Positions 15,019-63,298 of a stretch of 64,000 nucleotides of DNA are shown in pieces (position 1 is the stretch's first letter; the number at the start of each line of letters is the position of its first letter). The position numbers were made by a program, and so were the translations under genes. Under the pieces are notes generated by a model, which was not told the origin of the DNA, did no database searches, and saw only the letters and a list, made by a program, of their open reading frames with translations. This stretch comes from Patescibacteria group bacterium (GTDB lineage: Bacteria > Patescibacteriota > JABMPQ01 > JAQVVF01): positions 577,511-641,510 of the forward strand of contig JBAZSC010000001.1 in assembly GCA_041662665.1 (NCBI GenBank). The letters run 5' to 3'.

Positions 15019-15056
15019 GTAGTAAGTAGCAAGTAGTTCTTTCTACTTTCTACATT

Positions 15057-17831: not shown

Positions 17832-17943
17832 ACGAGAATCTAGAATTTAGAATCTTGAATCTTGAATCGAATTTAGAATGTAGAATTCTAAATTCCAAAT
17901 TCTTCATTCATTCTAGAATCTAGATTCCAGATTCTAAATTCTT
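17832..17943 (+). repeat. tandem heptamer array (TWGAATY, about 10 units) followed by inverted copies (GATTCTA); a large palindromic structure
   Basis: gagaatc tagaatt tagaatc ttgaatc ttgaatc ... ttctagaatctagattccagattctaaattctt. Confidence 0.7.
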
Positions 17944-24617: not shown

Positions 24618-24660
24618 TTTTGAATTTATCAGCGTTAAATCAGCGTTAGAAATCAGCGTC
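24618..24660 (+). repeat. 4 x ATCAGCGT element (periods 11-13-11)
   Basis: atcagcgttaa atcagcgttagaa atcagcgtcga atcagcgc. Confidence 0.85.
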
Positions 24661-25237
24661 GAATCAGCGCTTGCTTCAATCTTGCATAAAAATTCTGCAT
24701 TTCATTTTTACTATAATTTTTCTTTAAGTTTAAGTCAATTTCAGTCAGTGTTAACAAATTTTGATCTGTTACACCAGCTGCAGAAATCGCAAAAGTCAGC
24801 TTATTATTTTTAATATAATAATTACTCAACAAAAATTCTCTCAAATTAAAATTAGCACATGCTTTTTTCCATTGTGAATCGATATCTGTAACTTTTGTAT
24901 CAACAAATTCATATTTATCAAATGCTTTTTCAGCACCTAATCTTATTGAACTTGGCTGTCCACTATATTTTACGCATAAATTTGCATCATTAAAATTGGG
25001 TGGAATTCTAACTGAAAAATAAATTAATTCTGCCTTAACTTTTTGCGAATAATCACTGCCAACATGTTCAACGGGCAATAGTCTATACCAAGGATACGGA
25101 TTAGAAAAACGCAACGAATCATCAGGATTAAAATTATAAACAATTGTCATATTCTTATCAAACACAAAAAACATTGATAAAACATAGATTATCACTGCGA
25201 CAAACAGAATCCAAATTATTATCTTCAAAATTTTCAT
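24653..25237 (-). CDS. membrane-anchored hypothetical protein (N-terminal TM plus an extracytoplasmic domain)
   Basis: An ORF bracketed by two ATCAGCGT elements. The C-terminal ALIRR is encoded by the element. Confidence 0.5.
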   Translation of the reverse strand: MKILKIIIWILFVAVIIYVLSMFFVFDKNMTIVYNFNPDDSLRFSNPYPWYRLLPVEHVGSDYSQKVKAELIYFSVRIPPNFNDANLCVKYSGQPSSIRLGAEKAFDKYEFVDTKVTDIDSQWKKACANFNLREFLLSNYYIKNNKLTFAISAAGVTDQNLLTLTEIDLNLKKNYSKNEMQNFYARLKQALIRR

Positions 25238-27446: not shown

Positions 27447-27489
27447 TTCAGCGCAATATCAGCGTTAGCAATCAGCGTCAAATCAGCTT
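27447..27489 (+). repeat. 4 x ATCAGCGT element in a divergent promoter region (periods 11-13-11, terminal atcagcttctaca)
   Basis: ttcagcgcaat atcagcgttagca atcagcgtcaa atcagcttctaca. Confidence 0.85.
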
Positions 27490-28463: not shown

Positions 28464-28530
28464 AGTTTAGAAATTTAAGCATTAAAAATTTAATAGAAAT
28501 TAGAAATTGAAAATTAGAAATTCGCTATAT
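28464..28530 (+). repeat. tandem TWGAAAT heptamer array
   Basis: tagagtt tagaaat ... tagaaat tgaaaat tagaaat. Confidence 0.6.
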
Positions 28531-29600: not shown

Positions 29601-29639
29601 TTCTGCTTTTTCTGCGTTAGCTTCTGCGTTCTTCTGCGT
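29601..29639 (+). repeat. 4 x TTCTGCGT element (periods 9-12-10)
   Basis: ttctgcttt ttctgcgttagc ttctgcgttc ttctgcgtc. Confidence 0.85.
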
Positions 29640-30445: not shown

Positions 30446-30492
30446 ACTAAAAAACGTTATCGCCACCCAACTTTAGTTGGGGTTATATCAAA

Positions 30493-30513
30493 GCGAAATA
30501 ATTTCGTTTTTTT
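30493..30513 (+). terminator. intrinsic terminator (cgaaa-taa-tttcg plus a T-run)
   Basis: Read directly after the CDP-alcohol phosphotransferase gene. Confidence 0.5.
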
Positions 30514-30542
30514 GTTATCTTTAAGCCAAAAACCAAAAAATA

Positions 30543-30571
30543 TTGACATTTTATTGAAAAAATGCTATCAT
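30543..30571 (+). promoter_or_regulatory. sigma70 promoter of small gene D (TTGACA-N17-TATCAT)
   Basis: The -35 consensus and the 17 nt spacer were read directly. Confidence 0.5.
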
Positions 30572-30601
30572 TATATGTTCACTCAAGCCAGGGAGGAAAG
30601 A

Positions 30602-30925
30602 ATGGCCAAGAATAAAAGACATGAATTGTTCGAAAGGTTGCATGAAATTCTTGGCAAATATCCGACTTGTCTCGAGACAAAGCCAGAAGATTTCAGATTC
30701 ATCATGTTGAAACTTGCTCCAAACAAAGCAGAAGGTTTCCTGTTCGAAGGAAGAAATCTGAGAGATGACAAAATTTACAGATTTCTTGTATACAAAGAGG
30801 CAGAATCCATCAAATTCGTTCTTTCAATCGATGGTGAAATCACCAAGCAAAGCTCCTTCTATCCGACCGCCACAGAAATGACATCACTTTTCGAAGAAAC
30901 TATCGACCACATCCTCATGTTCTAA
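30602..30925 (+). CDS. small cytoplasmic protein, cassette family member D (107 aa)
   Basis: SD GGGAGG sits 5 nt before the ATG at 30602. The C-terminal TIDHILMF strand is shared with cassettes A-C. Confidence 0.6.
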   Translation: MAKNKRHELFERLHEILGKYPTCLETKPEDFRFIMLKLAPNKAEGFLFEGRNLRDDKIYRFLVYKEAESIKFVLSIDGEITKQSSFYPTATEMTSLFEETIDHILMF

Positions 30926-30926
30926 T

Positions 30927-30949
30927 AGACCCTAATCGGTCTTTTTTTA
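30927..30949 (+). terminator. intrinsic terminator (agacc-ctaatc-ggtct plus T7)
   Basis: Read directly. Confidence 0.6.
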
Positions 30950-30951: not shown

Positions 30952-30975
30952 CAAAAAATCGGACAATCAGTCCGA
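30952..30975 (-). terminator. intrinsic terminator for the minus-strand gene 31004..32575 (tcggac-aatca-gtccga, T-run on the minus strand)
   Basis: Read directly; it forms a convergent terminator pair. Confidence 0.55.
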
Positions 30976-31007
30976 CTTTATAAACTTTATAACTTTAAGA
31001 ACTTTAT
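30974..31007 (+). repeat. 4 x AACTTTAT element (periods 9-8-9)
   Basis: gactttat aa aactttat aactttaa g aactttat. Confidence 0.8.
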
Positions 31008-32575
31008 AGACTGTTAGTCATCACATTTTTAACAACATTAACTGGAATATTTACAAAATCCTTATAAATTTCACTTGCCGGCTTCCCATCCATGTATTCC
31101 GGTACTTGCAACCCCATATAATTCAAAACAGTTGGCGTAATATCCAAAATACTGATTGGTTTAATTTCCTTGCCAGCCAAGATATTTGGACCTAAAGACA
31201 TAAATATTCCATCTTGATCATGATATGAATTTGTATGCGATGTCGTTTCCACAAAAAGTTTATCATCAAATCTTGCAACAGCCAATCTTTTTTCACCATT
31301 AACTTTAAAAATAATGTCTGGCGCTTCAGCAACATAATTTCCATGATATTGCTCTTCACATGACATTACTTCTGTAAAAACTTTATCGCCATTTGGATCA
31401 GTAACCAACTTTAATTTTTCAATAATTTCTGATCTTAATTTTTTATATTCTTCTTTACTGACAGTTCCATTATTCTCTCGACCTATCAAATTAATATTTA
31501 CGCCCCAAGTTGATTTTGCGCCTAATTGAGCATAAGCAGTTGTATTTTTCCAATCAATCGTCTTTGTTGATTGCGGAATATTTTCTCTTATAATATTTTT
31601 AATTGATCTTGGAACAATATTCCTAAATTTATCAATAAACTTATTTTTAAATAATTTCTGTCTATCAAATTTAATTAAGTGAAAAAATCTGCGAAGTAGG
31701 GAAGTATTGCCTTGTTTTTCATGAACTTGTCTCCAGCCTTTTGCAACAACATCATTAATTTCTGATTTTTTGTATTGCATATAACCATTCTGATTCAACC
31801 AAGCCATGATATTAAATGTTTGATCATAATCATTAAAGCCATGATCAGACATAACAAATAATCCAGTTTCATTATCCATTAATTTCAAAATCTTGCCCAT
31901 CAAATCATCAAGAGTTTTATAAGTCCTAATAACCTTGTCTTCTTCATGCCAAAAATCATGCCCACAAATATCTGAACAACGAAACACAATCATAGAAAAA
32001 TCCCATTTTTCAGAAGTATAATATTTTTTCCAAATTTCATATCTTGCTTTATCAACTGAAACCATTGCATCAAATCTTTCTTCTCCGCCTTTATGTCGTA
32101 AATTTAATTCCATTGAATCAATAACATAATTTTGTTTTCGAAGCTCTTGTTCAAAAGACAATGGTTCAGCATATCTCTGAGTTGACAAAGATAATAGTCC
32201 GCCAACTAATTTGCCATTAATGCTTTCTGGAGGATAAGTCATTGGCACATTCCAAACCAAGCATCTCTTGCCATTTTCTGACAATATTTTCCATAATGAT
32301 TTAACTTTTACATCAGAAAAAGTATGAATTTTTCGATCTTCAATATTGAATTTATGCGTTGATAAAAAATGAAAGATTCCATGTTTGCCAGGATTCACGC
32401 CAGTATAAAAAGAAGGCCAAGCTGGCACAGTCAAAAAAGGAATTGTACTTTTCAAAATTCCATGACTTCCTTTTTCTAAAATATGTTTGAATGTTGGCAA
32501 TAAACCTTGATCACTATATTTTTTTATAGCTCTAAAAGTTCCGCCATCTAAACCCACGATTAACGCTTTTTTCAT
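31004..32575 (-). CDS. alkaline-phosphatase-superfamily type I phosphodiesterase/nucleotide pyrophosphatase-like enzyme
   Basis: The N-terminus is ALIVGLDGGTF...VPAWPSFYTG, and it carries SDHG. Confidence 0.7.
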   Translation of the reverse strand: MKKALIVGLDGGTFRAIKKYSDQGLLPTFKHILEKGSHGILKSTIPFLTVPAWPSFYTGVNPGKHGIFHFLSTHKFNIEDRKIHTFSDVKVKSLWKILSENGKRCLVWNVPMTYPPESINGKLVGGLLSLSTQRYAEPLSFEQELRKQNYVIDSMELNLRHKGGEERFDAMVSVDKARYEIWKKYYTSEKWDFSMIVFRCSDICGHDFWHEEDKVIRTYKTLDDLMGKILKLMDNETGLFVMSDHGFNDYDQTFNIMAWLNQNGYMQYKKSEINDVVAKGWRQVHEKQGNTSLLRRFFHLIKFDRQKLFKNKFIDKFRNIVPRSIKNIIRENIPQSTKTIDWKNTTAYAQLGAKSTWGVNINLIGRENNGTVSKEEYKKLRSEIIEKLKLVTDPNGDKVFTEVMSCEEQYHGNYVAEAPDIIFKVNGEKRLAVARFDDKLFVETTSHTNSYHDQDGIFMSLGPNILAGKEIKPISILDITPTVLNYMGLQVPEYMDGKPASEIYKDFVNIPVNVVKNVMTNSL

Positions 32576-33823: not shown

Positions 33824-33866
33824 ATCAGCATCGTATCAGCGTTCGAAATCAGCGTAGAATCTGCTT
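33824..33866 (+). repeat. 4 x ATCAGCGT element (periods 11-13-11)
   Basis: atcagcatcgt atcagcgttcgaa atcagcgtaga atctgcttctat. Confidence 0.85.
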
Positions 33867-34811
33867 CTATTTCCGAAATTCCATCCTTTTTATTTTATAC
33901 AATATTTCCTCCAATAATTTTCTATTCCATCCAATTGCAGATCCTAACAGCCCAATCACTAACACTTGAAAACCAATCATCATCAAAGCACCAGCCAAAA
34001 TCAAAGATTGAATATGGCCAGTTCCATTGCCAATAAGATAATAATATAAAAACCTAATAACAAATAATAAGCCAGCACCAAATAGAATAGAGCCCATTAT
34101 ACTCATTACTCGCAATGGTTTATAAATCGTAAAAGTTCTTGTTATAACCATCAAAGATTTTACAATGTGAGACGGAATGCTTTTGATCAATCTTGATTTT
34201 CTATTCACTTTCCTTGCACGAATTGGAACTTCAGCAATCAACATATCATGATCAAGAGCTTGAATTACTGATTCATGAGTATAAGTATGTTTTGATAAAA
34301 TATTTATTTTCATTGCCGCTTCTTTTGTATAAGCTCGAAATCCAGAAGAAACATCATATTTTCTTGGCAAATCAACAACTTTATATACAATATAATTTCC
34401 AAACATGTTTCCATATTTATTGAATTTCGGCATAAAATCCAAATCTCGCACACATCTATTTGCAATCACAATGTCAGCCTTATTTTTCAAAATTGGAGCA
34501 ATCAAATCAGGAATTCTTGTCTGATCATAGTGATTATCAGCATCAGTATTTACAATAATATCAGCCCCAAACCATAATGCAGCAGTTACCGCATCTTTGA
34601 AAGTAATTGCCAATCCTTTATTTTTTTTATGTGAAATAACATAATCAGCGCCAGCTTCTTTTGCGATGCTTGCTGTATTATCAATTGACCCATCATCCAA
34701 AACTAGCACTTCTACTTTTTTAATACCAAAAATCTGCCTAGGAATTTCTCTAATCACTTCAGCAATATTCGCTTCTTCGTTAAATGCCGGTATTGTAATA
34801 ATTAATTTCAT
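33867..34811 (-). CDS. GT2 polyprenyl-phosphate sugar synthase (Dpm1/GtrB-like) with a C-terminal TM anchor
   Basis: Carries ITIPAFNEEANI...VLVLDDGSIDNT and two C-terminal TM helices. Confidence 0.75.
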   Translation of the reverse strand: MKLIITIPAFNEEANIAEVIREIPRQIFGIKKVEVLVLDDGSIDNTASIAKEAGADYVISHKKNKGLAITFKDAVTAALWFGADIIVNTDADNHYDQTRIPDLIAPILKNKADIVIANRCVRDLDFMPKFNKYGNMFGNYIVYKVVDLPRKYDVSSGFRAYTKEAAMKINILSKHTYTHESVIQALDHDMLIAEVPIRARKVNRKSRLIKSIPSHIVKSLMVITRTFTIYKPLRVMSIMGSILFGAGLLFVIRFLYYYLIGNGTGHIQSLILAGALMMIGFQVLVIGLLGSAIGWNRKLLEEILYKIKRMEFRK

Positions 34812-34816: not shown

Positions 34817-34850
34817 AACTTTATGGACTTTATAACTTTAAAAACTTTAT
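34817..34850 (+). repeat. 4 x AACTTTAT element 6 bp upstream of the Dpm1-like start codon
   Basis: aactttat g gactttat a aactttaa aactttat aaactaat. Confidence 0.8.
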
Positions 34851-34906
34851 AAACTAATTATCATATATCATCTTACATTTTACCCCATAATAAAAAAAAA
34901 TCAATC

Positions 34907-34935
34907 TTGACAGATTTAAAATATGTATCTATACT
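34907..34935 (+). promoter_or_regulatory. sigma70 promoter of cassette A (TTGACA-N17-TATACT)
   Basis: Consensus hexamers with exact 17 nt spacing. Confidence 0.65.
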
Positions 34936-34980
34936 TATTTAATTGTTCCTTACCACCCACGAAGAGGAGGAAAGAAAAAG

Positions 34981-35337
34981 ATGAAAATCGCCAAAATCAG
35001 AAAAAACAGAGCTATATCAGCTCAAAAAATCAGAGAAGACATGTATGCTACGCTTCTCAACTTTATGCTCGAACTCAACCAGCGTCTACCCTTTGACACA
35101 GATAGCCTCCATGAATTAGAAGGTATTACAGATGACCTTGAACAAAAAGGTGAAACAAGACTAGAGATTACAACAGATAAACCAAATCAAGTTATTGAAA
35201 TTTTCGCTAAAATTAACACCAGACACAGCAACGATAGTGGTATTTTTCTTCCTGGCACAAGATTCTCACTTAGCATAGCTCCACCTGAAGTTAACAATTC
35301 AACAATCGTTTTACACATCAGATTAGTACTTTTCTAA
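34981..35337 (+). CDS. small cytoplasmic protein, cassette A (118 aa)
   Basis: SD GAGGAGG is present. The C-terminal strand is TIVLHIRLVLF. Confidence 0.65.
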   Translation: MKIAKIRKNRAISAQKIREDMYATLLNFMLELNQRLPFDTDSLHELEGITDDLEQKGETRLEITTDKPNQVIEIFAKINTRHSNDSGIFLPGTRFSLSIAPPEVNNSTIVLHIRLVLF

Positions 35338-35344
35338 ACATATT

Positions 35345-35367
35345 ACTCCTTATTAGGAGTTTTTTTA
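35345..35367 (+). terminator. intrinsic terminator (actcct-tatt-aggagt plus T7)
   Basis: Read directly. Confidence 0.7.
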
Positions 35368-35381
35368 TTTACAATAGATTC

Positions 35382-35410
35382 TTTACAAATCAAAAATATT
35401 TATCTATACT
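35382..35410 (+). promoter_or_regulatory. sigma70 promoter of cassette B (TTTACA-N17-TATACT)
   Basis: Read directly. Confidence 0.6.
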
Positions 35411-35453
35411 TATTCAATTGTACATTCTCAACTCAAGAGAGGAGGAAAGAAAA

Positions 35454-35825
35454 ATGACCACCGACACAAACGAACTCAGAGAATTTCACAATAAATATCT
35501 AGAAGCACTTAAAATCGTCACAGCAATGCTTCAACAATACGAAAACGCTGTTCAAACACTACTAGATCAATATCCTGACATTCTCTCAATCATGACCCAA
35601 AGCGACTGGAATTACATGGTAAAACAAGCTCTGCTTTATGGAACACATTCTCAAGACTTTACAGGTTACAAATTACCAAAAAAATTTTTCTTCCAAAACC
35701 AATGCCTGACTATCAAACCGTCTCTTGAAATTTCTTTTGAAACGAAAGATGAAGACAATGAACCTTCGGGTTTCTGTACCACAAAAGTTACCATCAAAAT
35801 TACTTCGCACCCTTTGAACCAATAG
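35454..35825 (+). CDS. small cytoplasmic protein, cassette B (123 aa)
   Basis: The ATG at 35454 follows the SD GAGGAGGA; the track start at 35418 lies in the promoter. The C-terminus is IKITSHPLNQ. Confidence 0.65.
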   Translation: MTTDTNELREFHNKYLEALKIVTAMLQQYENAVQTLLDQYPDILSIMTQSDWNYMVKQALLYGTHSQDFTGYKLPKKFFFQNQCLTIKPSLEISFETKDEDNEPSGFCTTKVTIKITSHPLNQ

Positions 35826-35847
35826 CTCCTGAATTAGGAGTTTTTTT
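35826..35847 (+). terminator. intrinsic terminator (ctcct-gaatt-aggag plus T7)
   Basis: Read directly. Confidence 0.7.
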
Positions 35848-35858
35848 ATAAACACAAC

Positions 35859-35887
35859 TTGACAGATCAAAATTATTTTTTTATACT
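35859..35887 (+). promoter_or_regulatory. sigma70 promoter of cassette C (TTGACA-N17-TATACT)
   Basis: Read directly. Confidence 0.65.
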
Positions 35888-35925
35888 CATTTAAATTGTT
35901 CCTTCAACAAGGAGGGAAAGAAAAA

Positions 35926-36318
35926 GTGACACCAGAAGAATCCGCAAGTTTTACCCAAGATCTCCAACATCTTTCAGAACATGGTTCTCGCTATTTAAAG
36001 TTATATTTTCTAGTTAGAAATGAATGGAAACGACTTTTTAGTAATCTGTATCTAGGCGAAAGTCCAAAAGATGTAGAACAAATTGCTCTAGAATTGATCA
36101 TGAAAGGCAAATCAGAAAATAGCTTAGGACACTACGGAACGGTTGGAGATATCATTCAAGCGTATTTAAATTTCATGTCACTACTTCCCGAATCGGAAAT
36201 TATTAATGTCGAAATGAAATGGAATGAGAGTACTGATAAACAAATTGATAAACCAAATATTTATATTGATGTTACATTTTTCCTAATCCAACATCCCTTG
36301 AATATTCAAAAAGACTAA
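35926..36318 (+). CDS. small cytoplasmic protein, cassette C (about 130 aa, GTG start)
   Basis: The GTG at 35926 follows the SD GGAGGG; the track's TTG start at 35896 is unlikely. The C-terminus is FFLIQHPLNIQKD. Confidence 0.55.
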   Translation: MTPEESASFTQDLQHLSEHGSRYLKLYFLVRNEWKRLFSNLYLGESPKDVEQIALELIMKGKSENSLGHYGTVGDIIQAYLNFMSLLPESEIINVEMKWNESTDKQIDKPNIYIDVTFFLIQHPLNIQKD

Positions 36319-36327
36319 CCGCTCATT

Positions 36328-36351
36328 ACTCCTTAATCGGAGTTTTTTTTA
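36328..36351 (+). terminator. intrinsic terminator (actcc-ttaatc-ggagt plus T8)
   Basis: Read directly. Confidence 0.7.
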
Positions 36352-36352
36352 T

Positions 36353-36392
36353 TTCTGCGTTTTTCTGCGTTCACTTCTGCGTATTTCTGCGT
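36353..36392 (+). repeat. 4 x TTCTGCGT element (periods 10-12-10) overlapping the flippase 3' end
   Basis: ttctgcgt tt ttctgcgt tcac ttctgcgt at ttctgcgt; it encodes the flippase C-terminal NQRRNTQK. Confidence 0.85.
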
Positions 36393-37837
36393 TGATTTAA
36401 TAATAATTTAATCTGTCCAATTTCACCTTGTCTAAAAAATCTCGTTGCAAAAAGTAGAATAAAAAATAATATTAACAAACATAAATTCAAAAGTATGGAT
36501 GTATAAAAAGAATAATTATTAAACAAATAGCTTAATGCCAAAAGACCGCCAGAAATTAAAACTAATTTGATAATTCTCATCCATTCATATACAACTTTAT
36601 AATAAAAATTAGAAACAAAATAAGTTAAGACAACCATCAAAACAAAACAAACAAAAGTTGACCAGGCAGCAGCCATCATTCCATATTTTGGAATAAATAT
36701 TATGTTCAAAATAATATTTAAGATTGCAGGAATTCCAACTAATAGGGGATAATATTTTGTTTTTTCTTCTAAATGCAAACCCGGCACAATCACAAAATGC
36801 ATGCCGTACAAAACATAAGAAAAAGCAATCAATGGAATTATTTTATAAGCATCAAAATATTCTGGTGATGAAACAACTTCCACAATTTGTTTTGCAAAAA
36901 TAGAAATTGTCAAAGCAATAAAAGAAGAAACAAGCAACCAATATGTCAAAGTTCGCGCATAAATTTGTTTTGTGTCATTTCTTTTTGCAACTGAAAAAGA
37001 AATCGTAGGCCAAGCAAGTTGAAAAGGAGTTACGAGTAAAATTGAAACTATAAATCCAATTTTATAACCAAGAGAATACAAACCAACCTCTGTCAAAGAA
37101 TCATAAACTTTCAAAAAATATCTATCAGACAAATCCATTACCCACATTGCCAGAGATGCTGGAATAATTGGAATTCCAAAAGCAAATAATTTTCTCAACA
37201 AATCTTTTGAAAAACTTAATTTAAGATAAGGAATTAAATTAAAAAGGAAAGGCACGCTGATAAATACTTGAGCAATAAAATTACCAAGCATTATGCCAAA
37301 CACACCCATTTTTGCAAACGCTACAAAATAAATATTTAGTCCCAAAACTAAACCAAACTTTAATAACGAAAAAATAATATATTTTACAGATTTTTCTTCG
37401 GCGCGAAAAACAGAAAAAGCAAGTGCCAAAAATACTGCAAACAAATTTGTAATCAATAATAAATTTACTAAATTTGCATATTGTGTTCCACCCAAAAATG
37501 TGTTTGCAATAAAATCTCTAAATAACCACAAAACCAAAGTGGATAAAATAGCAAGCGGAATTATAAACAAAAATGCAGTGCCAACCAATTGTTTCTGTTC
37601 AACGTCAGTCTTGCAATCTCTTTCATAACATTTAAAAATTGCCGAAGCAAAACCAAAAGACAAAAGCATTGATAAAATCAAAATCAAAGTATTCAAAATT
37701 TCCAACTGGCCATAATCAGCAGGTGATAAATACCTCGTGTACATTGGAATCAAAATAAACCCAACAATACTTTGCGCTAATGATCCAATAGCATAAACAA
37801 AAGAATGTTTAAATAATCTCCTAAATTGATCTAGCAT
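36371..37837 (-). CDS. Wzx/MOP-superfamily flippase
   Basis: A 488 aa polytopic membrane protein of the polysaccharide biosynthesis protein type. Confidence 0.7.
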   Translation of the reverse strand: MLDQFRRLFKHSFVYAIGSLAQSIVGFILIPMYTRYLSPADYGQLEILNTLILILSMLLSFGFASAIFKCYERDCKTDVEQKQLVGTAFLFIIPLAILSTLVLWLFRDFIANTFLGGTQYANLVNLLLITNLFAVFLALAFSVFRAEEKSVKYIIFSLLKFGLVLGLNIYFVAFAKMGVFGIMLGNFIAQVFISVPFLFNLIPYLKLSFSKDLLRKLFAFGIPIIPASLAMWVMDLSDRYFLKVYDSLTEVGLYSLGYKIGFIVSILLVTPFQLAWPTISFSVAKRNDTKQIYARTLTYWLLVSSFIALTISIFAKQIVEVVSSPEYFDAYKIIPLIAFSYVLYGMHFVIVPGLHLEEKTKYYPLLVGIPAILNIILNIIFIPKYGMMAAAWSTFVCFVLMVVLTYFVSNFYYKVVYEWMRIIKLVLISGGLLALSYLFNNYSFYTSILLNLCLLILFFILLFATRFFRQGEIGQIKLLLNQRRNTQK

Positions 37838-37859: not shown

Positions 37860-37947
37860 TTCAGCTTTCGTATCAGCGTTAGAATCAGTGCGTAATCAAC
37901 TTCTACATATCAGCGTTCGAAATCAGCGCCGAATCAGCTTCTACATA
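37860..37947 (+). repeat. two consecutive ATCAGCGT-family elements (4 plus 3 units), each ending in atcaRcttctaca
   Basis: ttcagctttcgt atcagcgttaga atcagtgcgta atcaacttctaca t atcagcgttcgaa atcagcgccga atcagcttctaca. Confidence 0.85.
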
Positions 37948-38028
37948 AATTTAACACAAAAATACTATTTTGTGAATTTATTAAAAATGCTAAACTACAT
38001 TAAACAACAAAATTATATTAAAAACAAA

Positions 38029-39849
38029 ATGAAAAAAGTAACAATATCTCTTTTTATTGTTAGTTTAATAATTTTATTAGGACTTCCTGTCCAAGCCCAG
38101 CCTCAATTCATTTCAACTGATTTTATATTTGATTTTGCTGCTTATGGCGATCCTCAAAATAGTAATGTTGTTCATTTAGAATTAGTTGATCAAATTACTC
38201 CTTTAGCACCATCATTTACGTTAAACATGGGAGATATTGTCCAAAATGCGCTTCTTGAAGAACAGTGGACAATGTTTAAAACTGTAATAACTTCTTTATT
38301 AGTTCAGCCACTCAAAAAAGGACTTGATCGAAATTACTATCCGACAATTGGCAATCATGATATTCCTCTAGAAAATTATCAAAAAACTTTTGAACTAACA
38401 TCAGAATATTATTCATTTGACTATCAAGGATATCATTTTATCAGCTTAGATACCGAAATAGATGGGTTGCCTGACAGTCAACAATATTCTTGGCTTCAAA
38501 ATGATTTATCTATAGCAAATCAATCTGGAAAAAAATCGATTGTCTTTTTTCATGAACCTCTTTATGGAAGATTAATTCATTATACTGAAAATACGGAACT
38601 AAGAAATGCCTGGACTCCATTATTTCAACAAAATAATGTCAAATTAGTTTTTAATGGCCATGCTCATATTTATCAAAGAACATATCCATTATATGACAAT
38701 GCAATAAACTATGATCAAGGCATAATTTATATTACAACAGGAGGAGCAGGTGGAGAATTAGGAATAATTGAGAATAACTGGTGGGCAGAAAAAGAAGAAA
38801 GTGTTTATCATTATGTTTATATTCAAATTACAAATAGCAAAATTATTATTAGCGCAGTAAACGAAGCTGGACAAATTTTTGACAATTTTGAAATCATTAA
38901 CAATAACAATGAAAAAAATATTATTTCAACATCAACTGATCAAAGAAACAAAATTAATTTTTTTTCGGCATCAGGAAAATCAAAATCAAATTCATTTTAC
39001 CCGCTGAATAATTCGTCAAAAACAGGAGTCAGACTTGCAAGCGGAGATATTGATCTAGATGGGAAAGATGAAATTATCACTGGAGCAGGACAAGGAGAAC
39101 AATCATTAGTTAAAATATTTGAATCAGACGGAAGATTAGTAAGTAAATTTCATGCTTTCAAAAAAAATTATTTGGGTGGAATAGATGTTGCTGCCGGTGA
39201 TATAAATAACGATGGTCAAGATGAAATTGCAGTTTCAAAACTAACGGAAAATTCACAGACAAAAATATTTAACTATAATGGAAAAACAATATATTTCGAT
39301 AAAAAAGTTTTCAAAGAATTAATTGGTGCAACTGTTGCATTGGGAGACATCGACAATGATAAGCAAGACGAATTAATTATCGGAACAAATAATGGAATCA
39401 GATCTAAAGTCATTTTTTACGAAATACTTTCTTATTCAAAAAAAGGAAAGCTCAAAAAAATAGAAATTTCGCCATTCAAAAAAGAATATACAAATGGCAT
39501 CGACGTTTCTTCTGGAGATATTAATGGTGATGGCAAAGAAGAAATCGGCATTTCAAAATTAAATAAAAAATCAAAAGTTAAAATTTACAAATACAATAAA
39601 AAAAGAAAAGTTTTAGGAAATTTTAATGCATTTAATAAAAAATATGTAACTGGTACAAACATTGATATGTTTGATACAAATTCTGATGGTATAACTGAAA
39701 TAATTTCTAGTATGACTGAAAGTAAAACAAATCAACCTAAAACAATAGTTCATAATTATCTAGGCAATATTATAACTAAATCCTTTTTATCTATAAACAA
39801 AAAAATATCGAATAACGTTATTTCAATTGGAATAAATAAAAATAAATAA
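38029..39849 (+). CDS. secreted protein with an N-terminal calcineurin-like metallophosphatase and C-terminal FG-GAP/VCBS-like repeats (domain order reversed relative to 18726..20495)
   Basis: The signal peptide starts at the ATG at 38029. The metallophosphatase motifs are AAYGDPQN, MGDIVQN, GNHD, FFHEPLY, NGHAHIYQRT. The repeat motifs are GDIDLDGKDEII, GDINNDGQDEIA, GDIDNDKQDELI, GDINGDGKEEIG. Confidence 0.8.
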   Translation: MKKVTISLFIVSLIILLGLPVQAQPQFISTDFIFDFAAYGDPQNSNVVHLELVDQITPLAPSFTLNMGDIVQNALLEEQWTMFKTVITSLLVQPLKKGLDRNYYPTIGNHDIPLENYQKTFELTSEYYSFDYQGYHFISLDTEIDGLPDSQQYSWLQNDLSIANQSGKKSIVFFHEPLYGRLIHYTENTELRNAWTPLFQQNNVKLVFNGHAHIYQRTYPLYDNAINYDQGIIYITTGGAGGELGIIENNWWAEKEESVYHYVYIQITNSKIIISAVNEAGQIFDNFEIINNNNEKNIISTSTDQRNKINFFSASGKSKSNSFYPLNNSSKTGVRLASGDIDLDGKDEIITGAGQGEQSLVKIFESDGRLVSKFHAFKKNYLGGIDVAAGDINNDGQDEIAVSKLTENSQTKIFNYNGKTIYFDKKVFKELIGATVALGDIDNDKQDELIIGTNNGIRSKVIFYEILSYSKKGKLKKIEISPFKKEYTNGIDVSSGDINGDGKEEIGISKLNKKSKVKIYKYNKKRKVLGNFNAFNKKYVTGTNIDMFDTNSDGITEIISSMTESKTNQPKTIVHNYLGNIITKSFLSINKKISNNVISIGINKNK

Positions 39850-42186: not shown

Positions 42187-43392
42187 ATGAAGTACAACGT
42201 TATTATGTTTAACATGTCAGAATTCCGAGAATGGAAATCTGGCATTGTTAATCGAAATTATCATATTTTACATAATCTATTAGAAAAGGATCAAATCAAC
42301 AAAATATTTGCTGTCGATTTTTTGCCTTACACAAAAAAACGCGCTTTAAAAATTTTAATGCGTTCAATATTAAAATCACCTGGTGGCAAAAGAATTCATT
42401 TTGACTTAACTTCAAGATTAACAAAAATTAGTGATAAGCTTTACGTTTATTCAACAATAGATTCAATATTTAGCGAACAAAAAGTTTACAAAAAAATAAA
42501 CAAACTGATTAACAAGTATGATCTTTTTAACAATTTAACAGTTAAGCAATCAAACAATTTATTAGTTTGGTCATATTTTCCAATGTTTTCTGGCTATTTT
42601 AACTATTTTAAAAATTCGAAAATTAATTCGCAAAAATTCGAAAAAGAATTCGAGTGCGTCAGCGTCTTTGATACAGTTGATAATTGGATGGAGCATCCAA
42701 ACTTTACTAATTATAAAGACAGAATCAAAAATAATTATGAAATAATTTCTAAAGAATCAGATTATATTTTTACAGTTTCCAAAGATTTGCTTAACATTTT
42801 TCCAAACGCCAAAAATAAAGAATGGATTCCAAATGGCGTTGATCTAGAACATTTTAATAAAAAATCTGACAAAACAATAATCCATGCTGGTCATCCAATT
42901 ATCGGCTATGTTGGTACAATTGAAAAAAGATTGGATTTTGAATTGATAAAATATTTAAGCCTAAAAAATCCAGAAAAATCAATTGTTTTAATTGGCCCAG
43001 TTTGGAAAAACGCTCAAGTTGATGAACTAAAATCACAAAACAATATTCATTTTCTGGGCAGAAAATCATATTCAGAACTTCCATATTATATTAATGAGTT
43101 TGATGTTTGTATCATTCCTCACAAAATTGACAAATTCACAAAATCAATGAATCCATTAAAACTTTATGAATATTTGGCTTGTGGCAAACCAATTGTTACA
43201 ACCAAAGTTTCTGGCATCGAAAAGTTCCAAGAATTAATTTACACAGCTAAAACAAAAGAAGAATTCAATGAAAAAATAAGTCAAGCTTTATCAGAAAATA
43301 GTAAAGAGAAAATCGAAAGCAGAAAAAATGCAGTTCAAGATGAAAATTGGAAAAACAGAGTTAATCAAATGTTAGAAACAATCTCAAAATAA
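42187..43392 (+). CDS. GT1/GT4-family glycosyltransferase carrying an in-frame ATTCGAAA element (NSKINSQKFEKEFE)
   Basis: Start trimmed to the ATG at 42187; the track's N-terminal extension reads through the repeat element. The C-terminal domain has YVGTIEKRLDFELI...YEYLACGKPIVTT. Confidence 0.7.
   Translation: MKYNVIMFNMSEFREWKSGIVNRNYHILHNLLEKDQINKIFAVDFLPYTKKRALKILMRSILKSPGGKRIHFDLTSRLTKISDKLYVYSTIDSIFSEQKVYKKINKLINKYDLFNNLTVKQSNNLLVWSYFPMFSGYFNYFKNSKINSQKFEKEFECVSVFDTVDNWMEHPNFTNYKDRIKNNYEIISKESDYIFTVSKDLLNIFPNAKNKEWIPNGVDLEHFNKKSDKTIIHAGHPIIGYVGTIEKRLDFELIKYLSLKNPEKSIVLIGPVWKNAQVDELKSQNNIHFLGRKSYSELPYYINEFDVCIIPHKIDKFTKSMNPLKLYEYLACGKPIVTTKVSGIEKFQELIYTAKTKEEFNEKISQALSENSKEKIESRKNAVQDENWKNRVNQMLETISK
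42613..42656 (+). repeat. 4 x ATTCGAAA-family element inserted in-frame within the GT coding sequence
   Basis: aattcgaaaatta attcgcaaaa attcgaaaaag aattcgagtg. Confidence 0.8.
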
Positions 43393-43513: not shown

Positions 43514-45475
43514 ATGAAACATTTCAAAAAATATTTATTCCCAATTCTTATAATCGCAATAGCGTTTCTTTTTTATTTTCCTTCTCTTAATGACAATTTT
43601 TTGTCAGACGATTATGATCATTTAATGTTTGCCAGATCGGTTGATAATGTAAAAATGATTCCGGGCATCTTCAAGATTCCAGGCGATATGTATCGACCAG
43701 TCATGAATTTATCAATTGTCATTGATTATTTAATTTATCATTACCATCCAACAGGCTTCCATTTTACAAGTTTATTATTATTTATTTTGTCTGCACTCTT
43801 AATTTATGCAATTGTCAAAAAGATTTCTAAAAATAGCTTAATGTCTTTTTTTGCTAGCTTAATTTTTATTGTCATTCCAAATCATTTCGAAACAACAATT
43901 TGGATCGCTGGCCGAACAGATTTGCTTGCTTGTTTTTTCTATTTATTAACAATTTATTTATTTATCCAATTTATTTTTAAAGAAAAATATTCTTGGCTCA
44001 TTTTATCTTATTTAGCTGCCATTCCCACATTTTTCAGTAAAGAAATTTCCATGACCTTGCCATTCACAATTGCCTTAATCTATTTAGTCTACTTAAGAAA
44101 AGAATCAAAGTTTAGCTTCAAAAAAATATTCTTGCTTTGGCTACCTTATATTGCACTTCTCATCATTTACTTAGTAATTCGTAAACAAATCGTCGGCAGT
44201 TGGATCGGAGGCTACAGATTATTTGGCGAAGTGTCTTCAACGTCTTTCTCTCCAAAAGCAATTTTATTGCCATTTTATTTTGTAAAATATCTATTTAATT
44301 TTGATTACCTTGCATCTTTTATTCCCAAATTTGCTACCAATTTTTCTGCTAATTTAGTTGCCATTTCAGGAATTGCAATTTTTTCAATTACAGCATTTTT
44401 ATTAAATTTAAAAAATCTCAAAAATCTAAAATTTTGGAAAAATATTGTCTTTTTAATTTTCATTACATATTTCGTCTCCATTCCAAATTTTTCAATTCTG
44501 CCTTCTTTGAAATTAAATTTAATGAATACTAGAGTCTTGTACATCGCCTCAATTCCAATTGCCATTTTAATCTCATATTTAATTTTTTCTACCCTCCCCA
44601 TGGGAGGGGTGGGCAAAAAGCTAAGAATAATTTTTGCATCTTTGATTTGCATTATCTTTAGCATCGGATTTTTCTTTAATTACATGCCTTGGCACAAGGC
44701 CCAAGCTAAATCAAAAATAATTCTAGATAGTATACAACAATTGCATCCAGAATTTTCCCAAATAGTTTATGCAACTTATGACAAAGAATTATTTTTCAAA
44801 AATTTGCCAGACAATATTTATGGCGCCTTTGTTTATCGCAATGGATTTCCAGAAGCTTTAAGAATTAAATTTAATAATAAAAAGATTTTCGTAAATCCAA
44901 AAGAAAAAATTGTTTGGGTTGTTAAAAATAATAAGGATGCCATTACATCTTTATGTAATTTCAAAAAAAATCCGCAGACAACTGGAATTCAAGTTTTTAA
45001 TTGGAATGACCTAGATGAAGTAAACAGATTTATTGAACAGCCAAGCATCGCCGAAAAACAAGAAAATAAAAAAATACTTAAACAACAATATTCTCAGCAA
45101 ATTCAAGAGTTTAATCAACAATTAAACAATTTAGCGCTTGAGCAATTTAACAATATAAATTCAAGTGGAAAAACAACAGCATTAAAAAGTCCTGAATTAA
45201 ATTTTCCTCCACAAATTATTGATGAATTAAGTTTTAAAATGACAGCGCAACAAAATTCTATCGCTGACTTTTTATGGCGTACAAAAAATTCAAAATTTAA
45301 CGACTTAAATAATAATATTTTACTGCCAATTAAAGCAGGGGATAATGAATACAAAATTGATTTAACAAAATGCCCAGCCTGGTTTACATCAACAACAAAT
45401 GATATCAACCAATTTGAATTAATTCCAACTGAAAAAAGACAGAAAATTAAAATAGATAATATAGAAATAAAATAA
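43514..45475 (+). CDS. GT-C family membrane glycosyltransferase (PMT/ArnT-like) carrying an in-frame REP-like insertion
   Basis: A polytopic protein with the first-loop motif FLSDDYDHLMFARS. The GC-rich palindrome at 44587..44613 encodes STLPMGGVGKK. Confidence 0.6.
   Translation: MKHFKKYLFPILIIAIAFLFYFPSLNDNFLSDDYDHLMFARSVDNVKMIPGIFKIPGDMYRPVMNLSIVIDYLIYHYHPTGFHFTSLLLFILSALLIYAIVKKISKNSLMSFFASLIFIVIPNHFETTIWIAGRTDLLACFFYLLTIYLFIQFIFKEKYSWLILSYLAAIPTFFSKEISMTLPFTIALIYLVYLRKESKFSFKKIFLLWLPYIALLIIYLVIRKQIVGSWIGGYRLFGEVSSTSFSPKAILLPFYFVKYLFNFDYLASFIPKFATNFSANLVAISGIAIFSITAFLLNLKNLKNLKFWKNIVFLIFITYFVSIPNFSILPSLKLNLMNTRVLYIASIPIAILISYLIFSTLPMGGVGKKLRIIFASLICIIFSIGFFFNYMPWHKAQAKSKIILDSIQQLHPEFSQIVYATYDKELFFKNLPDNIYGAFVYRNGFPEALRIKFNNKKIFVNPKEKIVWVVKNNKDAITSLCNFKKNPQTTGIQVFNWNDLDEVNRFIEQPSIAEKQENKKILKQQYSQQIQEFNQQLNNLALEQFNNINSSGKTTALKSPELNFPPQIIDELSFKMTAQQNSIADFLWRTKNSKFNDLNNNILLPIKAGDNEYKIDLTKCPAWFTSTTNDINQFELIPTEKRQKIKIDNIEIK
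44587..44613 (+). repeat. REP-like GC-rich palindrome (ccctccccatgggaggg), an in-frame copy
   Basis: ttctaccctccccatgggaggggtggg matches the hairpins flanking the RAYT gene. Confidence 0.75.
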
Positions 45476-45476
45476 A

Positions 45477-45498
45477 AAAATCATGTTTTCACATGATC
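45477..45498. terminator. hairpin (atcatg-ttttca-catgat) between convergent genes
   Basis: Read directly. Confidence 0.45.
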
Positions 45499-45784
45499 AA
45501 AAGTTCCATTTTATGCCTTTCTTCAACGAATCAATTCGTTTGAATGCTATTAAAATAATTATTACTGCTTCGCCTAAACCAAGAAACAAAAGACCCTCAT
45601 CCCCCTCTTTTAAATAGAAACCACCCAGTATTAACATAAAAGAAAGAAAAATCCCAAATTTCCAAAATCGTATTGAATCAAGCCAACTCTTTTTCTTAGC
45701 AAAGAAAACATATGAAATAATAATTGTACAAGAAAACATTACGATACAAAACAAACACTTTAGTATTAGCATTATTGTTTCCAT
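45497..45784 (-). CDS. small membrane protein (95 aa, 2-3 TM)
   Basis: An ORF with a hydrophobic profile, divergent from the GT2 gene. Confidence 0.4.
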   Translation of the reverse strand: METIMLILKCLFCIVMFSCTIIISYVFFAKKKSWLDSIRFWKFGIFLSFMLILGGFYLKEGDEGLLFLGLGEAVIIILIAFKRIDSLKKGIKWNF

Positions 45785-45913
45785 CCCTTCCTCCTCCTCC
45801 AGTTTCTGCTTTCAACGACAACCAAATATAGCATAAATTAAAAATAATATCAAATAATATAACAATTTATATTTATTCTAACCAAAATTATTAATATTTA
45901 ATATTCAACATTC

Positions 45914-49269: not shown

Positions 49270-49301
49270 TCAATTTAACAATTTAACAATTCAGCAATTT
49301 A
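49270..49301 (+). repeat. 4 x 8-mer array with no spacers (CAATTTAA CAATTTAA CAATTCAG CAATTTAG)
   Basis: Read directly in the divergent intergenic region. Confidence 0.6.
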
Positions 49302-50612: not shown

Positions 50613-51332
50613 TTAACCCAAAATGATCTTCAATAAATGTGCAGTATTCGTCAAGTCGTCAAACAGATAATCAGGAGATGCAATTACTAATTCTTCTCTA
50701 GAAACCAATCCAGTAGAAACACCAATCGTTTTTACACCAGCAATTTTTCCTGTTTTAACATCTCTAGGCGTATCACCAAACAGAAAAACCCTGTCTTCAG
50801 GTGCCCAATGATTTTCTTCATTTTTCTTCAAAGCCATTTTGACCAAATCTAAACGCTGTAATGCTTGATCACCAAATTGCCTAATTCTGAAAAATGGAAT
50901 CAATCCAGCTTTCCGAAGTTTACATTTAGCAATTCCTTCAACAGCACCAGTAACAACTCCCAACGCAACACCATTTCTAATCAATGCCCTAAGCAGTTCT
51001 TTCACTCCTGGCAAAGCACAAATTTCCATTTGCCTAACATCAGATTCATAAAACGCAGCCATTTCCGAAAAAATTGCAAATAACTTTTCATGAGCTACAA
51101 TTTTATCCATTCCATATTTTGCAAGCAAAGCATAAATCAATTGCGTGTCTGTCAAACCATGGTAATCAATTCCATCCAAAGAAGCATCCTTAATCCCACA
51201 AACTTTTTCCAATGCATAATAAACTGCTTTTCCATGCCCACCATTGTTAATTCCAGACGGAATCAAAGTTCCATCCATATCAAACAAAACCAAAACCTTA
51301 AACATATAGCTCCTGAACTGTGCATCTGACAT
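50613..51332 (-). CDS. HAD-superfamily hydrolase (phosphatase/beta-phosphoglucomutase-like)
   Basis: Carries motif I, VLFDMDGTL, and a motif IV region, LFGDTPRDVKTG. There is a strong SD; an alternative ATG at 51305 is also SD-preceded. Confidence 0.75.
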   Translation of the reverse strand: MSDAQFRSYMFKVLVLFDMDGTLIPSGINNGGHGKAVYYALEKVCGIKDASLDGIDYHGLTDTQLIYALLAKYGMDKIVAHEKLFAIFSEMAAFYESDVRQMEICALPGVKELLRALIRNGVALGVVTGAVEGIAKCKLRKAGLIPFFRIRQFGDQALQRLDLVKMALKKNEENHWAPEDRVFLFGDTPRDVKTGKIAGVKTIGVSTGLVSREELVIASPDYLFDDLTNTAHLLKIILG

Positions 51333-57556: not shown

Positions 57557-57593
57557 GTGTTAACTGTTAATTGTTAACTGTTAATTGTTAACT
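57557..57593 (+). repeat. tandem TTAACTG/TTAATTG array upstream of ctpA
   Basis: gttaactgttaattgttaactgttaattgttaac. Confidence 0.6.
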
Positions 57594-62061: not shown

Positions 62062-62100
62062 TTCTGCATTTTCTGCGTCAGCTTCTGCGTCATTCTGCGC
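62062..62100 (+). repeat. 4 x TTCTGCGT element (periods 9-12-10) between convergent pyrG and rpmA
   Basis: ttctgcatt ttctgcgtcagc ttctgcgtca ttctgcgc. Confidence 0.85.
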
Positions 62101-62372: not shown

Positions 62373-62440
62373 ATATTTACAATATTAATGATTAGTATAT
62401 ATAATAGATTAGCATTTAAAAAATAAATTGTCAATAAAAA

Positions 62441-62461
62441 CAAAAAAGAGCAACAGGCTCT
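62441..62461 (-). terminator. intrinsic terminator (agagc-aacag-gctct, T-run on the minus strand) after ORF 62473..62760
   Basis: Read directly. Confidence 0.5.
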
Positions 62462-62472
62462 TCAAAAAAGGT

Positions 62473-62760
62473 TCAATTTTGAATTCTTTTCAATACACAT
62501 GGTATAGTTGGTATTATCAATGCGCTAAAAATAAATGAAGAAATTGTCATCAATGTGGTTTCAAAATCGTGATAACAATCCAAAAAATTGTTCATGTTAT
62601 CAGATAATGTAGTATACAAGCCACTAGCACCAAGAGATAAAACTACAAAAACATATAGAAACCAGGGAGCAATAGAAATAAACCAAAAAATGAAAATTGA
62701 ACGCTGATGACGACTCGAAAAATTCGATAATCTCAACAACACATTCTTTACTCTTCTCAT
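62473..62760 (-). CDS. hypothetical small membrane protein (95 aa)
   Basis: An ORF followed by a terminator. No homology was recognised. Confidence 0.35.
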   Translation of the reverse strand: MRRVKNVLLRLSNFSSRHQRSIFIFWFISIAPWFLYVFVVLSLGASGLYTTLSDNMNNFLDCYHDFETTLMTISSFIFSALIIPTIPCVLKRIQN

Positions 62761-62773
62761 ATTTCCTCCTCTC

Positions 62774-63298
62774 TTGCAAACCTACATACATAATATCAAA
62801 AATATGCAAAAAATCAAGGAATTTATAAAAAACAATCATGACAGAATTATCCTAACAGTCGGCGCAATTTTAATTGCAGGAACTAGTTTTGCCATTGGCA
62901 GATTATCAATAAATAAACAAACGATACCTATAGTTATAAATGAGAATACTAAACAAGAAGCCAAAACAGAGCAACCACTCCAGAACATAAACACCCTAGA
63001 CACAGAAACACAAAAACAAGATAACGACTCAAACACCAAAGACACTAATGCGCAAGAACAAAATACACAGAAGAATGATACAAAACAACAAAAACAAGTC
63101 CCAAAAAAAACACAAGCACCAAAAGCAACACAAACATCAAAAAATGATTGCGCATTTGTTGCAAGTAGTAGAGGACATAAATATTACAATGCAGATTCAT
63201 CATCAGCAAAAAGCTTAAGTGAGCAAAATAAGATCTGCTTTCCAGATGCCAAATCAGCTGAAAAAGCCGGTTACGAACCAAGTGCCAGCATAAAATAA
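62774..63298 (+). CDS. secreted or membrane-anchored low-complexity (Q/K/T/N-rich) protein with a small Cys-containing C-terminal module
   Basis: Has an N-terminal TM or signal segment. The C-terminus DCAFVASSRGHKYYNADSSSAKSLSEQNKICFPDAKSAEKAGYEP resembles a small conserved module found in secreted proteins. Confidence 0.5.
   Translation: MQTYIHNIKNMQKIKEFIKNNHDRIILTVGAILIAGTSFAIGRLSINKQTIPIVINENTKQEAKTEQPLQNINTLDTETQKQDNDSNTKDTNAQEQNTQKNDTKQQKQVPKKTQAPKATQTSKNDCAFVASSRGHKYYNADSSSAKSLSEQNKICFPDAKSAEKAGYEPSASIK

Follow-up and report, generated by a model that had tools for sequence, protein, structure and literature searches.

Which genes fill a gap between two neighbouring genes of a cell-envelope glycan operon when the same gap is empty in relatives, and how do they come and go? 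This question is raised by a 64,000-nucleotide stretch of a Patescibacteria group bacterium (GenBank assembly GCA_041662665.1, contig JBAZSC010000001.1, positions 577,511 to 641,510 of the forward strand; hereafter the window, with coordinates counted from its first letter), in which three consecutive small genes, units A, B and C (34907-36351), stand in tandem between the genes of a Wzx-type flippase and a GT2 glycosyltransferase, and a fourth small gene, unit D (30543..30949), occupies a gap of its own. An initial annotation, made from the letters of the window, had described the four as a probable fast-evolving paralogous family with one common layout. Our results suggest another partition: units A to C, and separately unit D, are probably moron-like autonomous small-gene modules in a conserved Patescibacteria glycan operon, a reading that we hold with moderate confidence. 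Each module consists of a near-consensus sigma70 promoter, a GGAGG Shine-Dalgarno (SD) sequence, an open reading frame (ORF) of 107-130 amino acids (aa) and an intrinsic terminator, and the modules were added in antisense orientation into intercistronic gaps of the Wzx-GT2-GT4-phosphodiesterase operon. Judged from these sequence signals, each unit would be transcribed and translated independently of the operon that it interrupts. The array changes by birth and death, with copy numbers of 0, 2 or 3, loss of positional orthology and replacement of alleles.

Organization of the tandem array

Units A, B and C are head-to-tail direct repeats on the forward strand, with start-to-start spacings of 475 and 477 bp, and all follow one layout, namely a promoter-like site, a leader of ~45 nt, a GGAGG-type SD, an ORF (118, 123 and 130 aa, respectively) and a GC-rich hairpin followed by T6-8. 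The left junction of the array lies where AAAAATCAATC meets TTGACA. The regulatory module of unit A (34889..34980; nhmmer E 6.5e-23) includes an A-tract, the -35 box TTGACA (34907-34912), a 17-nt spacer, the -10 box TATACT (34930-34935), a leader with TTCCTT and the SD GAGGAGGA (34964-34971); it is homologous to the B and C modules and precedes ORF A (34981..35337), which encodes a soluble orphan protein of 118 aa, and the terminator ACTCCTTATTAGGAGT + T7 (35345..35367). In unit B, the module TTTACA-17-TATACT with leader and SD GAGGAGGA (35382..35453, SD at 35439-35446; E 6.4e-26) is followed by ORF B (35454..35825; 123 aa, ending in ...KITSHPLNQ) and by the terminator AGCTCCTGAATTAGGAGTT + T6 (35824..35848). 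Unit C has the module TTGACA-17-TATACT with the leader TTGTTCCTT and the SD AGGAGGG (35859..35925, SD at 35910-35916; E 2.5e-24), an ORF with a GTG start (35926..36318; 130 aa, ending in ...LIQHPLNIQKD) and the terminator ACTCCTTAATCGGAGT + T8 (36328..36351). Unit D, also on the forward strand, carries TTGACA-17-TATCAT, the SD GGAGGA at 30592, an ORF of 107 aa (30602-30925) and a terminator (30927-30949).

The similarity among A, B and C resides in a stretch of ~100 nt that spans terminator, promoter, leader and SD. A profile built from the inter-ORF regions of the three units matches each of them at nhmmer E-values of 6e-23 to 6e-26, and nothing in the rest of the window scores better than E 0.7. 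Their regulatory DNA is mutually 72-79% identical, and sensitive blastn finds no mutual similarity in their coding DNA. At the sequence level, the promoter-like sites of A to D score 10-11/12 against the sigma70 consensus, and the number of terminator-like sites (10) compares with 3.7+/-1.8 in shuffles; together with the Pfam content of the neighbours, these scans support the earlier description of independently signalled small genes inside a glycosylation locus. The strong expression also proposed there would follow from the consensus signals. Indeed, the promoters, 17-nt spacers, SDs, intrinsic terminators (with tails of T6-8) and C-terminal strings that the initial annotation gave for the four units are all present. 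The common leader tatttaattgttcc stood only in part: it is exact in A, is found with 3 mismatches in B and with a 1-nt insertion in C, and is missing from D, the upstream DNA of which matches the A/B/C profile at the SD only (E=2.2), so that D has the generic layout in common with the array but not the sequence. The array is no assembly artefact, since two independent assemblies match the window over it with 100% identity and a syntenic array is present in a sister species. Nor are the units known RNA genes, since no Rfam family or tRNA was detected in the window.

Two further observations concern the regulatory modules. A leader hairpin that would sequester the SD (UUCCUU:AGGAGG) is predicted in A, B and C but is not supported, its z-scores being -0.9, +0.3 and -0.7 and its consensus amounting to 4 bp at -1 kcal/mol. 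Pattern scans with the promoter box gave 4 single matches in the genome_contigs collection and 31 in metagenome_contigs (both apparently without the source genome), all restricted to the promoter stretch and none encoding a relative.

Orphan proteins and the array in related genomes

Neither blastp nor phmmer detects similarity between any two of the four proteins, and nothing below E ~0.02 was found for them in Pfam, NCBIfam, PHROGs or PADLOC, the anti-phage defence profiles of PADLOC giving 0 families at E<=1. Scans of viral contigs with C and D and phage tblastn with A, B and D gave no match, and neither a signal peptide nor a membrane segment was detected in A to D. An identity as DNA mimics or anti-restriction proteins was rejected because, with isoelectric points of 4.8-7.8, the proteins are not consistently acidic. 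Searches at the scale of billions of proteins were run for A, B and C, D being left out: a word-indexed search of 5.8 billion proteins returned only A and B themselves, and an exhaustive phmmer search of 1.84 billion representatives with C returned a single true relative (P0004; 131 aa, 37% identity, E 4e-12), the second match, P0005, being a repeat-protein false positive.

The gene of this relative lies on L038, a Joint Genome Institute (JGI) contig with synteny to the window. Its gene order is GT2, cytidylyltransferase, CDP-OH transferase, a small ORF, phosphodiesterase, GT4, GT2, three ORFs of 143, 129 and 131 aa (the L038 array, labelled A', B' and C') and Wzx. Further contigs of relatives were gathered by a search with Wzx, and they show that the array is variable between conserved flanks. 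In L041 (GCA_964574655.1; Wzx 90% identical) the Wzx-GT2 gap measures 152 bp and holds no small genes; the gap is 71 bp in L046 (Wzx 57% identical) and 1 bp in L047 (54%). L043 (69%) has two small antisense genes (labelled E and F), for a 142-aa protein ending in ...LLPHPHTSD and an unrelated signal-peptide protein, and L044 (68%) has a gap of 520 bp with broken small membrane ORFs. The copy number of the array is thus 3 in the window and in L038, 2 in L043 and 0 in L041, and in the three species that carry it (window, L038 and L043) the array lies beside Wzx and GT2 and antisense to the operon. Since Wzx and GT2 are neighbours that run in the same direction in L041, L046 and L047, the ancestral state is a Wzx-GT2-GT4 operon and the array is an accessory block.

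The very fast evolution proposed earlier is borne out by this comparison: in L038 the flanking proteins have 80-96% identity to those of the window, against 36% for C/C', a non-significant 25% for B/B' and no detected similarity for A/A', which leaves the A and B pairs unrecognisable. In addition, the regulatory modules of A and B in the window have an identity of 0.67-0.73 to the C type, compared with 0.50-0.56 to those of their positional counterparts A' and B'. Positional orthology is lost, and each lineage has remade its array by duplicating or converting whole units. In L038, 'GGAGTTTTTTATTTAACAACAATTT' flanks unit C' on both sides, an example that points to growth of the array by tandem duplication of whole units.

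A third version of the array belongs to the PHN19 metagenome-assembled genome (MAG; GCA_028699085.1), the units of which we mark with double primes. It is split there over two contigs, L042 (9872-10186, reverse strand) and L048 (6388-6555). Palindromic CCAGCG..GCTGG elements stand at both array contig ends, and a duplicated Wzx 3'-end fragment of ~120 bp lies upstream of C''; an insertion or rearrangement may have occurred between units B'' and C''.

Are the four units one family?

The proposal that A, B, C and D form a single fast-evolving paralogous family, produced by duplication and followed by divergence in place, has in its favour that all four have the same layout and size and end in a hydrophobic strand with a histidine. 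For B and C, the relationship became visible through the arrays of the relatives. C and C' match at E 1e-21, and protein A' of L038 acts as a bridge, with matches to C (E 9e-5), C' (7e-5) and B (3e-3). The family defined in this way, which we call HPxN, comprises C, C', C'', A', A'', B, B', B'' and E of L043. When C, C', C'', A', B, B' and E are aligned, the invariant positions are a G (in ELIMxG), a P (in an LPESE-like motif) and a terminal H-P, usually as HPxN and preceded by a hydrophobic strand. We compared the profile score of each protein with those of 2000 composition-preserving shuffles. With a profile of the C group, the real score was reached by 0/2000 shuffles for B, 5/2000 for B' and 126/2000 for E; the reverse test, with a B-group profile against members of the C group, was weaker (10 to 181 of 2000 shuffles). 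B and C are thus, on profile and shuffle evidence, tandem paralogues in a new clade-restricted family.

The same tests separate the other two units. Protein A of the window, which lacks HPxN and ends in ...VLHIRLVLF, is marginal, its score being reached by 196/2000 shuffles with the C-group profile and by 74/2000 with the all-family profile; it thus stands above most shuffles. Protein D, with 1564/2000 and 689/2000, respectively, behaves like shuffled sequence and has no motif, which places it, as far as profiles can tell, outside the HPxN family. The terminal hydrophobic strand with a conserved histidine, which had been proposed as the mark of all four proteins, is supported as a family feature for B and C, with their invariant G, P and H-P. 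The AlphaFold2 models are of low confidence (predicted local distance difference test, pLDDT, 63-67): B (66.6) has two helices followed by four strands, and C (62.6) has four helices followed by a hairpin. The two models agree in their N-terminal helices and in a C-terminal beta-hairpin that ends just before HPxN, their middles differ, and fold searches with them gave no meaningful match. A Pfam search with 7 members of the HPxN family gave no match to immunity or other families at E<0.1, and a PDB profile search with the family gave none. One ORF of contig L013 reached E 0.004 with the C-group profile; it lies on the opposite strand of a chance promoter-pattern locus and was treated as a chance match.

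The slot of unit D points in the same direction. In L041 this slot is empty, the CDP-OH transferase and phosphodiesterase genes lying 88 bp apart. In L038 it holds an unrelated membrane ORF of 91 aa with a weak LiaF-TM match. When window positions 30446-30601 are compared with L038 positions 4449-4581, the promoter, leader and SD are orthologous, as are both downstream terminators, and the upstream 100 nt are 61% identical. The slot is thus an 'expression frame' in which the ORF has been swapped, encoding a soluble 107-aa protein in the window and a 91-aa membrane protein in L038. This swap, the shuffle-like scores of D and the lack of homology between its upstream DNA and that of A to C all weigh against a single family of four, and unit D seems rather to be a separate autonomous module, not homologous to the array.

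Divergence in place meets two further difficulties. It cannot explain regulatory DNA that is 72-79% identical beside coding DNA without blastn similarity, and it does not fit the rates of change at A'. We estimated non-synonymous (dN) and synonymous (dS) divergence and their ratio omega by the Nei-Gojobori method, for two pairs, the window with L038 and L038 with the PHN19 MAG, which is closer to it. In the first pair, the flanks have dN of 0.02-0.12 and dS of 0.84-1.2, C/C' has dN 0.60 with omega ~0.5 and dS ~1.2, and the alignments of A and B are saturated. Between L038 and PHN19, the flanks have dN of 0.003-0.026 and omega of 0.01-0.05, B' has dN 0.023 (omega 0.25), C' has dN 0.025 (omega 0.15) and A', with 67% protein identity, has dN 0.208, dS 0.685 and omega 0.30, next to a GT2 that is 99.7% identical. 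Relative to the flanks, non-synonymous change thus ranges from about equal to the fastest flank (B' and C') to ~70-fold faster (A', in the first slot). Since the dS of A' exceeds the ~0.25-0.55 of the flanks, replacement of the allele is suggested and not acceleration in place. Overall, we consider it unlikely that the four units are one family diverged in place; the kinship of B and C is the part of that proposal which is kept.

Coding genes or antisense signals?

A different explanation would be that the units act at the level of RNA or transcription, their antisense promoters and terminators uncoupling or throttling the glycan operon, with the ORFs incidental. Two observations agree with this: the modules are always antisense to the operon, in the window, in L038, in L043 and at a further module at 45.5 kb (described below), and their regulatory DNA is much better conserved than their ORFs. 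Indeed, the C regulatory region is 75-77% identical to those of C' and C'', and it must be under selection, as this identity is retained although synonymous sites are near saturation. However, ORFs of 118-143 codons are kept at 30% GC (guanine plus cytosine), with a strong SD in every unit and genome, and protein motifs are retained despite synonymous variation (CAC/CAT, CCT/CCC). The omega of 0.15-0.30 between close strains, being below 1, shows that A', B' and C' are functional coding genes. Because the ORFs and SDs are maintained, a purely antisense-regulatory role is improbable. The array genes are, by these ratios, under net purifying selection, with a constraint that is relaxed or episodic.

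Relation to the glycan operon

The window has ~30% GC and its genes are tightly packed. According to Pfam scans of ORFs, its first ~1-57 kb consist almost entirely of cell-envelope glycan genes, including GT2, GT4, PMT_2, Wzx, Wzy, CDP-alcohol transferase, phosphodiesterases and surface proteins with FG-GAP or NHL repeats (the Pfam scan of neighbour ORFs covers ~15-62 kb). The operon gene downstream of the array insertion site is the GT2 glycosyltransferase (33867..34811, reverse strand; 96% identical to its L038 orthologue), and the gene upstream of it is the Wzx-type flippase (36371..37837, reverse strand), so that the array, on the forward strand, is antisense to both.

This setting raises the possibility that the small proteins are dedicated accessory factors of the glycan pathway, that is, adaptors, chaperones or regulators of Wzx and the glycosyltransferases, or abundant glycosylation substrates. 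Every module that we saw lies inside the cell-envelope glycan region of ~60 kb, and the array adjoins Wzx and GT2 in three species, as such a role would have it. On the other hand, the array-less L041, L046 and L047 have intact and highly conserved pathway genes, partners that are 90-96% identical would hardly require adaptors that diverge by more than 60%, and A to D have neither the signal peptide nor the membrane segment mentioned above. Since close relatives whose pathway genes are near-identical do without the array, we give this role as little credence as the antisense one.

A further observation concerns the neighbourhood itself. A metallophosphoesterase and FG-GAP surface protein gene (37888-39849, forward strand) adjoins Wzx in the window and is also present in L043; the same-position gene is missing from L041 and L042, where an NHL-repeat gene abuts Wzx. 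The glycan region is fluid at several points.

SD-led modules in an SD-poor genome

Returning to the autonomous modules, their SD distinguishes them from nearly all other genes of the window. A scan of both strands for GGAGG, AGGAG or GAGGA at 4-13 nt before the start of ORFs of at least 50 aa found only D, A, B and C on the forward strand; on the reverse strand, the real starts found were those of two 95-aa membrane ORFs (45497-45784 and 62473-62760) and of one HAD hydrolase gene. A GGAGG-type SD thus precedes 7 of the ~57 window genes, and the other ~50, including those of the ribosomal proteins L9 (59806-60252) and L27 (62100-62372, reverse strand), have AT-rich upstream regions without SD. 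The loci of the relatives give the same picture, as the clear GGAGG-type SDs before called starts there belong to the variable small genes A', B', C', D', E and F and to a 115-aa ORF of L041; apart from these there were only internal, antisense or weak matches, and L046 and L047 have no such start. In this SD-poor background, an SD of their own may give the units privileged translation.

One of these modules repeats the situation of the array. The SD-led module at 45497..45860 (reverse strand) comprises the promoter-like TTGATA...TATATT, the SD GGAGGAGGAGGAAGGG, a membrane ORF of 95 aa and a terminator hairpin at ~45470-45496, and its ~430 bp are inserted precisely, in antisense orientation, between the stop codon of PMT_2 and the start codon of GT2, which are 7 bp apart in L041 and L042. 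The second one (62440..62790, reverse strand) has the SD AGAGGAGGAAAT, its 95-aa membrane ORF and a terminator hairpin with a T run. The remaining small SD-led proteins (the two 95-aa membrane ORFs, D', the 115-aa ORF of L041 and F of L043) showed no homology to one another.

Base composition sets some of these genes apart. GC at third codon positions (GC3) is 0.44 in D, 0.355 in B, 0.30 in A and 0.24 in C, against 0.228+/-0.044 in the ORFs of the window; C and the two membrane modules (0.26-0.28) are close to the background. The excess is not an expression-linked codon bias, since the ribosomal L9 and L27 genes have the lowest values (0.14 and 0.20).

Two other SD-led genes were noted. The sole SD-led ORF of the array-less L041 (319-666, forward strand; 115 aa) encodes an N-terminal membrane helix and a charged coiled tail, and its slot holds a gene of 573 aa in the window. 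The HAD-family hydrolase gene (50613-51332, reverse strand) alone among the larger genes has a strong SD (GAGGAGGGAGAG), and its GC is the second highest of the window ORFs (0.368); it may be another acquired gene.

Short tandem arrays were also seen in many intergenic regions of the window, with 3-9 copies of a heptamer-like motif at a period of 7-12 bp. TTCTGCG arrays lie at 29601-29639, 36352-36393 and 62071-62099; ATCAGCG arrays at 15276-15307, 24208-24230, 24628-24669, 27448-27487, 33835-33854 and 37871-37947; AACTTTATAA arrays at 30975-31012, 34817-34855 and 63305-63342; and further tandem arrays at 15039-15069, 17835-17942, 28494-28522, 42610-42653, 49271-49301 and 57558-57593. The three commonest motifs are always on the forward strand, regardless of gene orientation. 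At the orthologous site upstream of GT2, the motif is AACTTTATAA in the window, ATCAGCG in L041 and AAATTCG in L038. Such arrays abut the small-gene units, after the terminators of C and D and before the promoter of A, and one of them rewrites the last Wzx codons (...QRRNTQK*).

Comparison with known systems

The weakest explanation, that the units form an integron-like or rAID-1-like cassette array with ORFs captured by a site-specific recombinase at repeated intergenic sites, is very improbable: repetitive intergenic sequences between diverged small ORFs, skewed GC, strain-level variation and a D-slot ORF that differs between orthologous promoter, leader and terminators would suit it, but Pfam scans of the ORFs of ~15-62 kb found no recombinase, the tyrosine type (IntI/XerD) included, the repeat is made of promoter, leader, SD and a GC-rich terminator stem of 5-8 bp and not of an attC-like imperfect palindrome, every unit has its own promoter, and no immunity domain was matched. 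In Bacteroidales, the rAID-1 arrays are made up of small orphan immunity genes separated by repetitive sequences and have a skewed GC content (Ross et al. 2019, 10.1101/471110). Our array resembles them in its small, fast-diverging genes, its repetitive intergenic sequences, its skewed GC and its variation between strains, and differs from them in having 3 genes only and neither an XerD-type recombinase, integron-like sites, immunity-family homology nor a mobile element context. It differs also from integron cassettes, which are mostly promoterless, since the boundaries here are terminator stems followed by a sigma70-type promoter.

The closest likeness is to phage morons. A moron such as gene 15 of HK97 has its own promoter and terminator, lies between genes that are adjacent in relatives and has an atypical GC content (Cumby, Davidson & Maxwell 2012, PMC3594210). 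Likewise, our units carry a promoter and a terminator of their own, known here from sequence signals, and lie between genes that are adjacent elsewhere (Wzx/GT2 in L041, L046 and L047; CDP-OH transferase/phosphodiesterase in L041; PMT_2/GT2 in L041 and L042), which makes them evident additions to the genome. Their GC content agrees in part, being atypical in D, B and A and near background in C and the two membrane modules. Unlike morons, they reside in a region of a bacterial chromosome without phage genes, as none of the phage-type was found in the 64-kb window by PHROGs, phage tblastn or the Pfam scan of neighbours; they are in part a tandem paralogous array, they are antisense to the operon, and they have their own SD in an SD-poor genome.

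Two chromosomal systems invite comparison as well. The vsp/vlp loci of Mycoplasma are tandem genes with a conserved 5' region, including a lipoprotein signal peptide, and encode surface antigens with internal repeats that undergo phase switching. As in these loci, the promoter and 5' region of our units are far better conserved than the coding body; unlike them, conservation in the array ends at the start codon, the proteins have no signal peptide, and no switch element was seen. The 'minimal mobile elements' of Neisseria are chromosomal hot spots exchanged by homologous recombination of their flanks. The D slot and the first slot of the array resemble them, as their occupants differ between conserved flanks without mobility genes; unlike in Neisseria, the occupants come with, or stand behind, a conserved frame of promoter, SD and terminator, and several are tandem paralogues. 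Altogether, the feature is not a member of any defined system and is a variant of morons and hot-spot accessory arrays.

Possible roles and significance

The turnover of the modules between strains, the alpha+beta make-up of their small soluble products and the tandem grouping of diverged paralogues bring to mind above all immunity or anti-defence arrays of the rAID-1 kind. By analogy, we would guess that the soluble HPxN proteins might be cytoplasmic binding or neutralising proteins engaged in evolutionary conflict, such as toxin immunity, anti-phage or host-interaction factors. This possibility, which we rate as less likely than the autonomy of the modules themselves, would explain the turnover at strain level. 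Note that the known immunity families (Imm, SUKH and related) gave no Pfam profile match, that no toxin gene is adjacent and that Pfam scans found no toxin domain in the array neighbourhood. More generally, none of the roles that the initial annotation suggested (structural, chaperone-like, effector or immunity-type) gained a supporting match. Somewhat more speculative still is the wider idea that Patescibacteria carry undescribed portable 'expression cassettes', each a small gene with promoter, SD and terminator, which would insert antisense into SD-less core operons and turn over without a recognisable mobility gene; their SD would then reflect a separate translational regime or a foreign, possibly phage, origin, and HPxN would be a conflict family specific to episymbionts.

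The locus shows small genes arising, duplicating and being replaced within a highly conserved surface-glycan operon, and it yields, with HPxN, a new protein family without relatives beyond a narrow clade. Patescibacteria, also known as the Candidate Phyla Radiation (CPR), have very small genomes in which most strain-specific genes lack an annotation. In this context, the locus provides a signature for accessory and probably conflict-related genes, namely a small ORF that is preceded by a consensus promoter and GGAGG, is followed by a terminator and lies amid SD-less core genes, and we regard this signature of SD-led modules as the most useful and testable outcome of the analysis. If the pattern were general, it would raise the question of how a single cell combines SD-dependent with SD-independent translation, and it would offer a route to listing the fast-evolving interaction genes of uncultured episymbionts.

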